Source: Fidelibacterota bacterium (lineage in GTDB: Bacteria; Fidelibacterota; Marinisomatia; Marinisomatales; TCS55). From it: a stretch of 64,000 bases of DNA. The stretch is from positions 1 to 64,000 of the forward strand of contig JBHHTW010000008.1 of NCBI GenBank assembly GCA_046861385.1. The letters are read 5' to 3'. Position numbers: made by a program. Shown here in pieces: positions 1 through 30,000 of the stretch; positions within the stretch are counted from its first letter, which is position 1, and each line of letters begins with the position of its first letter.

Positions 1-3000
1 CTATGTAGTGTTTTTAGTCTTTTTTATCAATGAGTGACCAATCAGCTTCGAAACTGTGTATAGGTCTATCAAACCAGATTGAAGTAGAATGCTGCCAAAT
101 GTTTTTCTCAATGAATGCAAGTTTGCTACTTCAACTTTAGCCAATTTATAGGAGTTATCATCATTCTATACTCTTAATCCCGCGCAGTTCCAAAAATACC
201 TACGGCAGTAGACAGGGAAAAAGCAGTTATTAGATCGATGTGAGTCGTTCAATATTGTACTACACTCCTTTTGAACAAGGGCCCGATTTAGAAGAACTTG
301 AAATCAAGAAGGAAGTTGACAAGCTTCATATTAAACATCCATATGGGGTCACGAAATCTTCGTGATTAAGGGGTACAGAATAAACCGTAAGCGGGTTCAA
401 AGGCTCATGTATAAAAGAAAAACACTAATTCAAAATTAGCAAAATACTCTCGCCAAACTACAAAGCGAAATACCATAAAAATCCGATGCGAAGTCAACGG
501 GGATTAATAACCGAACATAGCCTCCTATATTTGATGAATATTTAAATTGATTCAATGGTTGATAAAAATAAATATCTGATAAGAAAAAAAAGCCTCAAAA
601 AATCCTACGACTTCTTGAGGCTTTTAATGCTATTATCCTACCCTAATATGATGAACCCATTTTAGGACAAGATATACTATTATACTTCTATTAGAAGGAG
701 TAGCTCGCCATAGCTCCTATGCTGGCAAAACCAGTAATGGAGCTACCATCTGAACCGCCAGCAAAAGCGACTACTGCTCTAACGTACGGTTTGACAACTA
801 ATGGCATATTGGGTACATTATAATCAAATGATGCACCACCAGTAGCACCTATTCCCCCAAGCCAACCTGCACCAGCAAATACTGACACAGGACCCTGAGG
901 AAGATTATAAACTGCTGCATTAGCATACGCATACGCAGCTGTTAATCCATTCATCGATCCAATTCCTGCATTGAAACCAACATCAAATGGTCCGACAGGC
1001 ATACCATATGGTGTTCCAACTGTGATTGCGAATACAGGCTCAGTGCCTAAATCATCAAAAGTTTCACCAGATAAAATAGGATAGCCTACATCTAAACCAA
1101 TCGTATACCCGCCCAATGCGGTCTGCGCATTCACCGTTGGTACCACCATTAATGCGAATAGAAGCAATATCGAAACGCGTTTCATGTGTTCCTCCATTAT
1201 TTTGTATTTGTTAGACTTGTTATGTTGCATGCAGGCCCATCTTACGGTAAGAATTGATGACAAGTCAATTGTTTTTTCCGACTTCAATTACAAAGTTTTA
1301 TAGATATCTGCAATCATAATGAAACTCATGAAAATATCATTAGGAAGCTTGGAAAATCGATTTTGAGTAGAATTTTGTATTATAATGCATTATTTCTTTC
1401 CCTTAAATCCACTAAGAACCGCTTCCGGTGTAATGGGTAATGCTCTGATTCGAACCCCACAGGCATTGTAAATCGCATTTGCCACTGCCGGTGCTGGGCC
1501 GTTAATAGGGATTTCCGCCACCGCTTTGGCGCCGAAGGGACCCGTCGGTTCGTTTGTGTGAACAAACTCAGCAATAATTTCCGGCATATCAATGGACGTA
1601 TATATATGATAATCCTCAAAATTTTTATTAATGACCCTTCCTTTTTTATCAAAAACCATGAATTCTGATAAGGTCATTCCCAAAGATTGAGGGATGGCCC
1701 CTTCAGCTTGGCCTTCGGACATTTGTGGATTAATAACCTGTCCGGAATCGGTGACGGATACAATTTTATTTACGTTCACAAATCCCGTTTCAATATCCAC
1801 TGTCACACCGGCAAAGGTGGCATTATAGGGGGGTGGACTTTCATAGCTGATCTTTGATGCTGTAGCCTGTATTTGTTTCTGGTGGTCTGTATAAAAAGAT
1901 TTTGTACAAATGTCCGTATAGGATATTGATTTTCCGTCAGGCGAAACAACGCTATTCTCTTTGATGATTGCTTTTGTCACACCCAATATCTTTTTCCCCT
2001 GTTCCAGAATTTGTTTTAATATTTCTTCTGCTGCTTTTTTAACAGCGCCGCCGGAAATATAGGTAGTACTGGATGCATATGCTCCGGTATCAAAAGGTGT
2101 TGTATCCGTATCCGATGACAGAACTATTATTTTATCCACAGAAACGTGCAATACCTCCGCTGCAATTTGAGCCAGAGCTGTATCAGAACCGGTCCCCAGA
2201 TCGGTGGCGCCCACGTTTAAATTAAAGCTGCCATCCTCATTCATTTTCATGTAAACCGATCCCATATCGATCCCGGCAATCCCCGAAGCCTGGGCAACAG
2301 TTGCCAAACCCACTCCTCGTCGAAATATGCCTGTTTTTTCATCGTTCCGGATCGTTTCCCATTCAATCAGTTTTTTTCCTCTGTCGATGCAAGCCTCTAT
2401 GCCAGTTGTATTTAATATAACAGGAAATCCTTCTCTTCCTTCCCCCAGGACTTTGGCAATGGGAACTTCTTCTCCCTCATGAAAATAATTCTGTTTTCGA
2501 AGTGCAATGGGATCCACATTCAATGATTCAGCGATTTCATCCATGAATGATTCCAGAGCAAAGAATCCTTGGGGAGCTCCATAACCACGGTAGGCGCCGG
2601 CGGGCGGTAGATTGGTATAAACAGAATTGGCTCTAATTCTGATATTGGGAGATCGATACAATGCAAGTGCTTTGCTGGCGGTTACAGACATGACTGTTAA
2701 TGAATGGGGGCCGTATCCTCCGGAGTTCTGAAGGATGTTCATGTCAATAGCATGAATTTTTAATTCTTTTGTGAGTCCGATTTTCAGTGTGACGTATTGG
2801 GGATGTCGGGACCTGGCCGCATAAAATTCTTCCTCACGGGTATATTCCAGCCGACAGGGCATTCCCGTTCTCATTGTCACCGCAGCACATATTTCTTCAT
2901 TTAGAATTTCCTGTTTCCCCCCAAAACCGCCTCCAATCCTCGGTTTAATCACTCTAATTTTTCTCACTGGAATATCCAATACTTCGCCCACGATTCGCCT

Positions 3001-27000: not shown

Positions 27001-30000
27001 TTTTGGTGGAGGTCATGTGGGAAAAGCAGTTGGGGAACTGGCCCTCTTTGTTGATTTAAATATTACGGTTCATGATGACAGGAAATCCTTTGTTAGCAAA
27101 GAAAGATTTCCAAACGCCTTATCCCGTTCGTTTGAACCTATAACTGCAATAATTGAAGGGGGCGCTCTTCAATCGTCAGATATGGCTTTGGTAGCAACCC
27201 GGGGACACCATCATGACTTAACACTCATTAGATGGCTTCTTAATTCAAAAGCAGGATGGATTGGACTGATAAGCAGCAAACGAAAATGGAAACTCCTTTA
27301 CCAAGGCCTGGAAGAAGAAGGGTTTACTCCAAAAGATTTAGATCGGGTTCAAGCCCCTGTGGGCTTGGATATCCACGCGCAAACTGTTCCGGAGATTGCA
27401 GTGAGTATTATTGGGGAGATAATTAATTATTTGCGAAAAACAAAAAAAAGGCGTAGTTAGTTTGATATTTTAAATCGGTAAAAAATCCAACTAATTTCAA
27501 TTGTTTACAGTATTATGTTAAAAAAATGACATACCATCCCACAGGCATGGTCAGCCATTCAAGATGGCAGGGAAATCCCGCCTGTCTGCCAAAGTGAAAC
27601 GTCGGACAGGTAGGGATGAAATATCTAGGCTATATTCTACAACCTTACTGAATTAGACATAATAAAACTATTCAACACCTAACGGCGTTGGCAGTAAGAT
27701 ATCATTATAGTTTATAGACATACAACTCCTACAGAGTACGAAACAATATTATGTTGTACAATGTCTATATTGATCCAGTGACCAGATTTTCAACAACCGT
27801 TGGGTCAGCCAATGTTGAAATGTCTCCCAGATTACTGGTATCTCCTTCTGCAATTTTTCTCAAAATACGCCGCATAATTTTCCCTGAACGAGTTTTGGGT
27901 AAAGCATTTGTAAACTGAATCTTATCCGGTTTTGCGTGGGGACCGATCTCTGTTGTCACTGAAGCCCTAATTTTATTTTCAACCTCATTTGAATTTTCGA
28001 CACCAGTCATGAGTGTCACAAAAGCATAAATACCTTGTCCTTTAATATCGTGAGGGAAGCCCACAACAGCAGCTTCTGCCACTCCATTAGCTTTGCCGAT
28101 AGCCCCTTCTACTTCCGCCGTGCCGATGCGATGGCCTGAAACATTTAATACATCGTCCACACGGCCGGTGATCCAGTAATATCCATCCTCATCCCGGCGT
28201 GCACCGTCCCCGGTGAAATAATATCCCGGGAATTGGGAAAAGTAGGTTTCAAAAAAGCGCTTATGGTCACCATAGAGTGTTCGCATTTGTCCCGGCCAGG
28301 ATGTTTTTATAGCCAGCAAACCGGAAACATCATTCCCTTCAATTGCTTCCCCCTCTTCTGTTAGCAAAACAGGCTCAACTCCGAAAAATGGAAATGTTGC
28401 TGACCCGGGCTTAATGGGGGTGGCGCCGGGGAGCGGTGTTATGAGGATCCCTCCTGTCTCAGTTTGCCACCAGGTATCTACAATGGGGCATTTCCCTTTC
28501 CCCACAATATTATAATACCACATCCATTCAGGCTCTTTGATGGGTTCTCCAACGGTGCCCAGTAGACGAAGTGAAGACAGATCTCGGTTGGTGACAAATT
28601 CATTGCCCTCTTTCATTAATGCACGTAATGCGGTCGGAGCTGTATAAAACAAGGTGATTTTATGTTTATCCACAATGTCCCAGAAACGTCCATAGTCCGG
28701 ATAGTTGGGCACACCTTCAAACATAACGGACGTTGCGCCATTTGCCAAGGGTCCATACACAATGTAAGAATGACCTGTAATCCAGCCGATGTCTGCCGTG
28801 CACCAATAAATATCTTCTTCATGATAATCAAAGATAAGTTCGTGAGTATAACTCGTGTAAACCAAATATCCACCGGTTGTGTGAAGGACGCCTTTTGGCT
28901 TTCCCGTTGATCCTGATGTGTATAATATAAATAAGGGATCTTCAGCATCCATTTCTTCCGGTTTGCAAACTGAGTCCGCTTTTTCCATTTCTTCATGCCA
29001 CCAAATATCCCTTTCCATAACCATATCAACCGATTCTCCTGTTCTTTTTACGACAATAACTTTCATTATGGATGGCGTCTGGGACACCGCTTTGTCTGCC
29101 TTGGTTTTCATGGAAATATTTTGCTTCATCCCCCGAACGCCGGTGTCTTGGGTAATAAGCACTTTACATTGTGAATCGTTGATTCGATCCCTTAAAGAAT
29201 CAGCGCTGAATGCTCCGAACACAATGGAATGGACAGCGCCAATTCTGGCACAGGCCAGCATCGCGACTGGTAATTGTGGAATCATTTGCATATAAATACA
29301 TACCCTATCTCCCTTCTCCACGCCGTTGTTTTTTAATACATTGGCAAATTTTTGTACTTCCTCCAGTAATTCTCCGTATGAATAAGACCGGTCTTCTTCT
29401 GGATTGTTTCCCTCCCAAATAAGAGCTGTTTTATCGCCCCGGCCTGCTTCAACTTGACGGTCTAAACAATTATAACTCACATTGAGTTTTCCTTCGGAAA
29501 ACCATTTAATATCTGCCTTGTGAAAGTCAATATCACTTACTGAATTCCATTTCTTGTACCAGGTAATCCGTTCTGCATGCTCACCCCAAAACGTATCTGG
29601 ATCCTGAATCGATTTATTATATATCTCCCGGTATTCATCTTGAGATTGAATCCATGCGTTATCCGAGAAATTTTTCGCCGGTAAAAATTGCTTAATAGAC
29701 ATGTTGTTTCCTTTCAATAAAACTTTATGGAATAATTTTTATAGAATTAATTTAACAAATAATTAGGATGAATTAGTCCAATCTGTTTTATCTATAAATT
29801 TCAGTTTTAACATTAATTGGAAATCCACGATAAGATGAGATAAATACCGATGGTAATACTCATTATAGCAATGGAGACTTTTTTTGCTTGGGGCCATGGT
29901 GTTATATCCACGGGCGCAGGAACTCTCTCATCACTGATAGCGATTTCTTCAGCGGATTTGGGTTTAAAATATCCAATGATCAACATTACCATCACCGATG

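Follow-up and report, generated by a model that had tools for sequence, protein, structure and literature searches.

A marine Fidelibacterota gene cluster points to a variant of reductive purine catabolism without YgeX

The reductive urate pathway through 2,8-dioxopurine is known from E. coli and C. sporogenes (10.1101/2025.04.24.650524; 10.1101/2025.05.19.654654, PMC12507026) and, according to its 2025 description, is enriched in the guts of animals. A related cluster lies in a 64,000-nucleotide stretch (the window) of contig JBHHTW010000008.1 from a marine Fidelibacterota bacterium, and it raises the question of how such a pathway could run, and end, where neither YgeX nor HyuA is encoded among its genes. 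The cluster has in common with the known pathway XdhD/YgfM, YgfK, an SsnA-like protein, YgeW, carbamate kinase, YgeY, a second xanthine dehydrogenase, and the YqeB/YqeC/MocA/SelD set. It differs in that XdhD is split into Mo and Fe-S genes, an 8-oxoguanine-deaminase family protein takes the place of GuaD, no purine transporter is present, two other fold-type II PLP enzymes occur instead of YgeX, HyuA is missing from the cluster, and the host, as read from its genes, also respires oxygen and nitrate. We interpret the cluster as a variant reductive (2,8-dioxopurine) purine pathway that would end with a 488-aa PLP enzyme (PLP488) and a ThrC-like enzyme and would borrow a dihydropyrimidinase encoded on contig C67, an interpretation to which we assign a probability of about 0.68.

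Gene content and order, conserved residues, and distribution among genomes were directly observed. Open reading frames were found throughout positions 1390 to 27460, none of them broken, and the genes and scores named in the survey's finding were all reproduced by profile search. Four further genes had not been listed there: those for the ThrC-like PLP enzyme (12249-13487), MocA, XdhC, and an AAA_14/DUF4143 protein (6304-7536, reverse strand). The last is probably an operon insert outside the purine pathway, with a GC content of 0.317 against about 0.42 for adjoining genes, at least seven paralogues among the genome matches listed, and presence at varying positions in 6 of 80 related loci. At the gathering score, Rfam gave no match in the window or in loci L001 and L087, and promoter-like sites in 19800-28000 occurred at chance level (25 against 23.9). 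The closest named loci, at 83-88% identity, belong to Marinimicrobia/Neomarinimicrobiota/Fidelibacterota; the ESM Atlas supplied automatic names only. Among the sequence-read matches listed for positions 10000-19900 there was no RNA dataset, and the four matching read sets derive from a single metagenome sample of a hydrothermal vent, which may itself be the source. Single contigs spanned 10000-27584 in three of these four runs, which are not independent of each other, and broke at a short repeat after xdhC.

By analogy with characterized homologues, the steps up to 2,3-diaminopropionate (DAP) can be provisionally assigned; the genes named in this paragraph all lie on the reverse strand. Adenine deaminase (22467-24104; TIGR01178 606.7, cut-off 472.5) and the 8-oxoguanine deaminase family protein (4906-6303; NF006055 608.6, cut-off 532), which is the best genome match of E. 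coli GuaD and probably also a guanine deaminase, would feed hypoxanthine, xanthine, or urate into the pathway. Hypoxanthine and xanthine would be oxidized to urate by the second Mo enzyme, a probable xanthine/hypoxanthine dehydrogenase whose Mo subunit (19901-22159) reaches 505 against a cut-off of 784 with its best model, PucD. Its partners are probably the FAD subunit at 10953-11786 (FAD_binding_5 and CO_deh_flav_C) and the [2Fe-2S] subunit at 11783-12256 (Fer2 and Fer2_2). The XdhD-type enzyme would then reduce urate to 2,8-dioxopurine. Its Mo subunit (1390-3675) matches E. coli XdhD best (37%) and carries, within an XdhD-type insertion that the second Mo subunit lacks, a Glu aligned to XdhD E606, a residue proposed as XdhD-specific (10.1101/2025.05.19.654654). 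It is encoded beside a [2Fe-2S] subunit (3672-4139; Fer2_2), whose gene overlaps the Mo gene by 4 bases, and an FAD subunit (4136-4900; FAD_binding_5), for which YgfM is the sole BLAST match among the E. coli cluster proteins (29% over 130 aa). Ring reduction would fall to YgfK, the putative 2,8-dioxopurine reductase (7688-10960; TIGR03315 919.4, cut-off 835.3; 37% identical to its E. coli namesake across 1085 columns), and one ring would be opened by the SsnA-like amidohydrolase (18459-19832). The latter and E. coli SsnA are mutual best matches at 34% identity. Its score of 415.4 stays below the cut-off of 444, as the survey's finding had stated, and TIGR03314 likewise (381.5, cut-off 455.5), with the next family at 127. 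Among the points against our interpretation are that SsnA and both Mo subunits, the XdhD-type one by all NCBIfam models, lie under cut-off, and that neither PLP enzyme has the catalytic Asp120 of YgeX. No uricase or urease was found in this 97.85% complete genome.

Maturation of a selenium-containing Mo cofactor would be carried out by YqeB, YqeC, MocA, XdhC, and SelD. Four of these are encoded by a forward-strand accessory operon: YqeC (24205-24954; TIGR03172 136.8, cut-off 73.05), a MocA-like Moco cytidylyltransferase (24933-25535; NTP_transf_3, TIGR03310 144.5 under its cut-off of 186.45), YqeB (25516-26331; TIGR03309 248.5, cut-off 220), and an XdhC-family maturase encoded by the last gene (26459-27460; XdhC_CoxI and XdhC_C). 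SelD exceeds its cut-off and has one in-frame TGA, and SelA and tRNA-Sec are present in the genome. The selenium-cofactor trait is defined by SelD, YqeB, and YqeC together (PMC5029168), and this marker set is complete here. Liu et al. identified no residue in the active site as a mark of selenium dependence. Gene content suggests that the pathway probably depends on the selenium cofactor.

At the end of the pathway the cluster departs from the gut version. The survey's doubt about YgeX was well founded, as neither a TIGR01747 match nor a tblastn match to E. coli YgeX at 1e-5 occurs in the genome, and YgeX is absent from all 40 YgfK-positive genomes among 121 sampled from the order. The same cluster slot holds two other PLP enzymes of fold type II, both encoded on the reverse strand and neither matching TIGR01747: the ThrC-like enzyme (12249-13487) and PLP488 (13484-14950). 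PLP488 occurs in 37 of the 40 YgfK-positive genomes, and only 3 of the 40 PLP488 genomes of the order fall outside that set; the ThrC-like gene occurs in 34 of the 40. In 80 loci around PLP488, YgeX was never found, while a YgeW-like gene was present in 54 and a ThrC-like gene in 51. A similar division appears in 300 Clostridia, where 16 of the 24 SsnA-bearing genomes have YgeX and the other 8 have the PLP488 family, all 8 with a ThrC-like gene as well; no close homologue of the ThrC-like enzyme was found in five YgeX-bearing Clostridia tested. One clostridial operon (G350) comprises ygeV-like, ThrC-like, ygeY, ygeW, and PLP488 genes, with no Mo enzyme within the 15 kb seen. Exclusion is not absolute, since 4 of 50 PLP488 genomes also carry YgeX. 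Two YgeX-bearing Clostridia have an intact PLP488 homologue (34-35%) outside any purine cluster; the idea that the homologues of the YgeX-bearing G238 and G419 were broken, for which stops had been flagged, was rejected because their frames are intact. This distribution makes it quite likely that PLP488 and the ThrC-like enzyme jointly replace YgeX and would carry DAP into central metabolism.

PLP488 yields PALP only in domain searches, has no BLAST match to E. coli YgeX, and lies below the CysK cut-offs (TIGR01139 93.4 against 350.95; TIGR01136 90.7 against 344.15). Its AF2 model (pLDDT 89) is closest to Fn1220 (Z 34.7), with YgeX at Z 23.5. With Fn1055 and the CysK/CBS group it shares the fold (Z 31-35), the PLP lysine and loops, and the Asp232-bearing motif; it differs in identity (about 24-28%), in purine context, and in N- and C-terminal extensions (488 aa against about 310-340 aa). 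K104 and D293 are invariant in 30 of 30 sequences. D293 aligns with Fn1055 Asp232, the position mutated in structure 5b55 (D232N), and the motif recurs in 120 of 120 PLP488 homologues among the matches listed. At the position of the catalytic Asp120 of the DAP ammonia-lyase YgeX/DpaL (PMC4000059), both enzymes have Thr, judged by motif in the STGN loop of PLP488. The PLP488 family comprises at least 8000 clusters at 90% identity. The ThrC-like enzyme resembles E. coli YgeX at 25% over 197 columns and exceeds the threonine synthase cut-off (TIGR00260 210.9, cut-off 167.1), and its best PDB matches are threonine synthases. However, the segments NSVNPYR and GNAGN of the solved enzymes (2zsj, 6cgq), which we take to bind the phosphate of phosphohomoserine, read STGTNPIM and GDGCI here, while G241, D242, and D298 are conserved. 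A housekeeping role as threonine synthase was rejected, thrABC being located on contig C13. The division of labor that we tentatively favor, modeled on Fn1055, is that PLP488 would remove the beta-amino group of DAP through aminoacrylate and then add water; the serine so formed would be dehydrated to pyruvate by the ThrC-like enzyme. Pathway intermediates are provisionally D-configured, and it is about equally plausible that one enzyme acts as a racemase on D-DAP while the other is a lyase specific for the L-form.

Upstream of DAP, one ureido group would be removed by YgeW (16051-17232; TIGR03316 639.1, cut-off 500; 64% to E. coli YgeW) with carbamate kinase (14968-15936; TIGR00746 399.2, cut-off 358.25), yielding ATP, and the other by the M20 hydrolase YgeY (17229-18458; TIGR03526 692.3, cut-off 321.5; 70% to E. 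coli YgeY), all three encoded on the reverse strand. The survey's description of the pathway as ATP-yielding holds for this genome, but carbamate kinase is missing from 5 of 9 fetched module-bearing clusters of the order (G011, G015, G026, G029, G042). YgeY was not found in 22 of the 40 YgfK-positive genomes, and in the 95% complete G099 no YgeY exceeds the threshold, although both PLP genes occur there along with YgeW and carbamate kinase. A PLP enzyme might thus act one step earlier, eliminating or replacing the 3-ureido group of albizziin with release of urea and making YgeY dispensable; albizziin was reported by Li et al. and carries the free alpha-amine that PLP enzymes need. We hold this to be improbable, as this genome keeps YgeY near the PLP genes and has no detected urease, and G099 holds a 512-aa YgeY-related M20 gene after xdhD. 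Furthermore, four YgeY-less clusters have two extra carbamoyltransferases, and these could strip both ureido groups. The second carbamoyltransferase of G001, G044, and G093 bears the HSLP and VXP motifs that mark the marine subgroup 3 of the pseudo-ATCases of Barba et al. 2013 (PMC4016543); the window's own cluster does not contain it. The same authors describe a Nocardioides pseudo-ATCase next to ygeW, xdh, and hyuA. The twin clusters differ in lacking YgeY and in that the pseudo-ATCase is accompanied by YgfK, SsnA, carbamate kinase, and an OTC-like gene. The carbamoyltransferase and hydantoinase trees were quick trees with long branches and served for grouping only.

Still less probable is that PLP488 is a cysteine or selenocysteine lyase providing sulfide or selenide for the Mo cofactor, while DAP would be exported or left to the ThrC-like enzyme alone. 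Its nearest folds are H2S-forming and cysteine-synthase enzymes, the Asp232 motif also marks cysteine lyases (a review calls it critical for cysteine specificity), and the gene sits within a selenium-cofactor cluster. Nonetheless, PLP488 belongs to the catabolic operon with ygeW, ygeY, and carbamate kinase and not with yqeBC, a separate Fn1055-like gene already exists on contig C71, and such a role would leave the mutual exclusion with YgeX unexplained.

In the variant pathway that we favor, the other ring would be opened by the dihydropyrimidinase on C67 in place of HyuA. The survey correctly stated that the cluster lacks HyuA, the sole full hydantoinase of the genome being that of the complete pyrimidine operon on C67 (score 612, cut-off 393; 41% to E. 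coli HyuA). Many relatives have a HyuA-like gene after XdhC, exactly where the accessory operon ends here, and the cluster-linked gene is lost in this genome. Classed by score only in 4 and 8 cases, respectively, 19 of the 40 YgfK-positive genomes have a cluster-type hydantoinase and 19 a pyrimidine-operon type, with both in none and neither in 2; the pyrimidine type occurs in 17 of 81 YgfK-negative genomes. Where relatives carry hyuA, G011 has the entire pyrimidine operon. This split supports the survey's suggestion, and its distribution makes a stand-in by the C67 enzyme likely. The least probable alternative is that the substrate is a different heterocycle, or that the pathway is cut short in this genome with HyuA unreplaced. 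The C67 enzyme belongs to a complete pyrimidine operon and is 32-34% identical to cluster-type enzymes, and SsnA and the Mo subunits score under their cut-offs, but adenine and 8-oxoguanine deaminases share the operon, all frames are open, genes downstream of the HyuA step persist in HyuA-less genomes of several families, and the pyrimidine enzyme is present in 19 of the 21 YgfK genomes that lack cluster HyuA.

The survey's finding called this gut-described anaerobic pathway common in marine Marinisomatales. The reductive core stands, with the departures at YgeX and YgeY given above. Its figure of 13 of 31 genomes came from another sample; in ours YgfK exceeds its cut-off in 33 of 121, and the pathway is present in about 27-33% of sampled species, counts that include non-independent kin and mostly fragmented assemblies. 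Occurrence is concentrated in some families and nil in four (0/16, 0/15, 0/10, 0/4). With genes for NarG and for a homologue of cytochrome c oxidase subunit I, the host is not a strict anaerobe; we take it for a facultative respirer of nitrate and oxygen that lacks uricase and would run the pathway when oxygen is low. The distribution of NarG, present in 5 of the 40 YgfK genomes, does not follow that of the cluster. A COX1-family domain occurs in 27 of 40, which does not decide lifestyle because many matches, in frames of 700-760 aa, may be nitric-oxide reductases.

Surveys can hide this variant: in one, YgeX was scored by Pfam PF00291, a model that the two proposed replacement enzymes also match, and a second made dpaL a requirement, a gene absent from these genomes. 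Natural variants with and without YgeY, or with twin carbamoyltransferases, bear on the order of ureido-group removal and the stereochemistry of the pathway, and two unannotated PLP families become specifically testable. Gut-type Clostridia are concerned as well, with the pair in 8 of 24 SsnA genomes. In its widest form our reading is tentative: the PLP488 family and its ThrC-like partner may constitute a second, previously unrecognized ending of reductive purine catabolism, from DAP through serine to pyruvate, and the usual form in Marinisomatota, found also in Cloacimonadota, Spirochaetota, Chloroflexota, and Bacteroidota, as well as in one third of the Clostridia that have SsnA. If so, those relatives that lack YgeY but have carbamate kinase and twin carbamoyltransferases would gain two ATP per purine rather than one, because both ureido groups would be kept as carbamoyl phosphate. 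The reductive purine pathway as such, found in roughly a third of the species sampled from this marine order, points to a route from purine nitrogen to ammonia that needs no oxygen and could operate where the sea is poor in it.

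The purine cluster of the host genome (2.43 Mb, 97.85% complete) comprises 16 minus-strand genes running from 24104 to 1390 and four plus-strand genes from 24205 to 27460, by open reading frames of the window, and the majority of gene junctions overlap or touch. In function it resembles the 2,8-dioxopurine pathway, yet the diaminopropionate (DAP) ammonia-lyase YgeX is missing, as is a HyuA within the cluster. Because of these two absences, it is classed here as a variant of that pathway rather than as the gut-type form proposed by the survey's finding, an account to which we assign a probability of roughly two in three. 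The pathway itself is already known, and all functions assigned here are predicted ones.

Profile searches against cut-offs reproduced every family score quoted earlier. SsnA falls below both of its cut-offs, yet it is the mutual best match of E. coli SsnA. SelA exceeds its cut-off and tRNA-Sec is present; SelD (contig C97, 10536-11462) carries one in-frame TGA at the active-site position and is therefore probably a selenoprotein. Named loci close in sequence to those of the window are from Marinimicrobia, and the sequencing runs containing its sequence are labelled hydrothermal vent metagenome, which may be the source sample. A low-GC AAA_14/DUF4143 gene with several paralogues in the genome lies within the operon (6304-7536); homologues occupy the same operon site in loci L012, L019, and L030 and a different one in L022, L043, and relative G011. 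A short interspersed repeat separates xdhC from acs (27555-27790), has seven further partial copies in the genome, and marks a point where contigs break. Further along (31663-33674) stands a tandem pair of GAPDH-family genes, one above and one below cut-off.

Purine catabolism by the reductive route is very likely. The Mo subunit at 1390-3675 has XdhD as its nearest E. coli protein (37%). An insertion with a Glu aligned to XdhD E606 occurs in this subunit and in all nine relatives' copies aligned, and is absent from the 19901-22159 subunit, E. coli XdhA, and two paralogues on contig C73. In the accessible text of Li et al. (10.1101/2025.05.19.654654, PMC12507026), E606 is proposed to be specific to XdhD, a proposal derived from a model rather than mutagenesis. 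To the first enzyme we assign a putative urate reductase role; the second is a putative xanthine dehydrogenase, whose Fe-S and FAD partners are apparently encoded at 10953-12256. Neither uricase nor urease was found in the 97.85% complete genome. Two XDH-family enzymes outside the cluster lie on contig C73 (16508-44941) with genes resembling, by eye, benzoyl-CoA reductase and ring-degradation enzymes, a likeness that suggests anaerobic aromatic degradation. A NarG over cut-off and a homologue of cytochrome c oxidase subunit I, both found in the host genome, indicate a facultative organism. A nar operon with nitrate transporters occupies contig C6 (26575-41987), and adjoining genes resemble alternative complex III by eye.

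No TIGR01747 match to YgeX occurs in the host genome. Its role probably falls to two adjacent PLP enzymes, a 488-aa CysK/CBS-fold protein (PLP488, 13484-14950) and a ThrC-like protein (12249-13487). The predicted PLP488 model (pLDDT 89) groups with the CysK/CBS type of fold (Z 34.7 to Fn1220, rmsd 2.1, 298 aligned), and its match to YgeX is much weaker (Z 23.5, rmsd 3.0, 307 aligned). In 30 of 30 sequences, neither the PLP lysine K104 nor the binding loops vary. D293 aligns with D232 of the cysteine (hydroxyl) lyase Fn1055, presumably the residue activating water. Fn1055 turns cysteine into serine and H2S through a beta-replacement for which Asp232 is required, according to the available part of PMC12940168. 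A separate candidate Fn1055-like cysteine lyase with the same Asp motif is encoded on contig C71 (14442-15488). The ThrC-like enzyme exceeds the threonine synthase cut-off, yet thrABC sits on contig C13. Certain threonine synthase segments, which we take to be phosphate-binding, are altered in it, with conserved Asp instead. Neither enzyme has the YgeX residue Asp120 (PMC4000059, available part). These features fit either a route from DAP through serine to pyruvate or a racemase plus L-lyase, and do not tell the two apart.

Among 121 order genomes, TIGR01747 matches occur in two, both without YgfK. PLP488 occurs in 40, 37 of them within the set of 40 YgfK-positive genomes, and a close ThrC-like gene (at least 45%, leaving out five 32-38% matches) in 36, 34 of them within that set. 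A GTDB scan returned at least 586 PLP488 relatives; around the best 80 loci (up to 10 kb, many contigs short), YgeX was found at none, YgeW-like genes at 54, ThrC-like at 51, YgfK and SsnA at 38 each, and YgeY at 30. Fifty genomes from these loci were searched whole. YgeX occurs in four, and purine genes are absent from the 1.5 kb around it. An archaeal (Thorarchaeota) contig, L032, carries a PLP488-family gene at 58%; no purine gene was seen alongside.

A second, independent test covered 300 genomes of the Clostridia, the class of Mageeibacillus genome G121 (G266 left out). SsnA was detected at 1e-90 in 24, with YgeX in 16 and a PLP488-family gene in the remaining eight (six at 54-58%, two at 36%). 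A ThrC-like gene shares the operon in seven of these eight and lies elsewhere in the eighth; genomes without one beside PLP488 carry it elsewhere in 5/5 cases (42-51%). In five of five YgeX-bearing Clostridia checked, nothing exceeded 31% to the ThrC-like enzyme. Strict exclusion is called into question by G238 and G419, which combine YgeX with an intact 34-35% PLP488 homologue not in a purine cluster, and by the 19 of 35 YgeX genomes without an SsnA match. Because kin are not independent, no P value is attached to the split. Four clostridial clusters (L154-L157; G205, G441, G344, G318) have a PreA-like dehydrogenase in place of YgfK and a 35% PLP488 subfamily, still partnered by a ThrC-like gene.

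Many relatives carry a distinct HyuA-like gene, forming a separate group, at or near the end of a yqeC-mocA-yqeB-xdhC operon; this type is absent from the host genome. The dihydropyrimidinase proposed in its stead (C67, 33902-35341) lies in a complete reductive pyrimidine operon. The 40 YgfK genomes divide into 19 with the cluster type, 19 with the pyrimidine type, and two with neither; no genome combines the two types. Context was seen for 15 and 11, respectively, the others were typed by score (two from split pieces), and weak full-length matches below 245 bits were excluded. The pyrimidine type occurs in 17 of the 81 remaining genomes. Li et al. (10.1101/2025.05.19.654654, accessible text) report that SsnA forms 5-ureido-dihydrouracil as a minor product and that HyuA cleaves both products, which makes the proposed replacement plausible. 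In G011 (C11, 1-30000), a complete reductive pyrimidine operon directly follows xdhC, adjacent to the purine cluster on one contig.

YgfK was detected in 43 of 121 order genomes at 1e-100 and in 33 over cut-off; the set of 40 includes fragments and omits G028 and G059 (paralogue-like partial matches) and G004 (doubtful). Four families have none (0/16, 0/15, 0/10, 0/4) and another 1/17, so "common" holds as about a third of genomes, in particular lineages. YqeB adjoins all nine fetched clusters extending that far and was detected in four of five additional genomes.

The ureido module varies between clusters, so the ATP yield proposed for the pathway is probably not uniform among relatives. YgeY occurs in 18 of 40 YgfK genomes. 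Fetched clusters lacking carbamate kinase pair YgeY with YgeW (G011, G029) or with an OTC-like gene (G015, G026, G042), and that of G099 has YgeW plus kinase. Twin carbamoyltransferases with a kinase and without YgeY in the cluster occur in G001 (C5, 20596-22513), G093 (C4, 32954-34871), G044 (C7, 73799-75716), and G051 (C4, 60790-62823), where they are additional to housekeeping pyrB and argF, and also in loci L007, L009, L035, L048, L078, and L081; a double phosphorolysis is possible. Locus L052 has three carbamoyltransferases plus YgeY. G099 lacks YgeY, and a 512-aa, distantly YgeY-like M20 protein following its xdhD (L107, 3650-5200) may stand in. A BMP-type ABC transporter lies in the purine clusters of G001 (L092, 8341-13068), G044, G093, and G099, and none in the window's cluster.

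Neither the PLP swap nor an occurrence of the pathway in Marinimicrobia was found described in the literature searched, which misses most subscription papers. A survey of metagenome-assembled genomes (10.1101/2025.04.24.650524, available part) applied a 4-of-7 rule, so its supplementary tables may include Marinisomatota. Related work, likewise available in part, includes PMC12990295, 10.1101/2022.07.24.501321, PMC5029168 (the Se-cofactor trait), 10.1101/2022.12.12.520169, PMC4016543 (pseudo-ATCases), and 10.1101/2023.09.28.559987. The proposed replacement of YgeX by a PLP pair is widespread, apparently undescribed, and directly testable.
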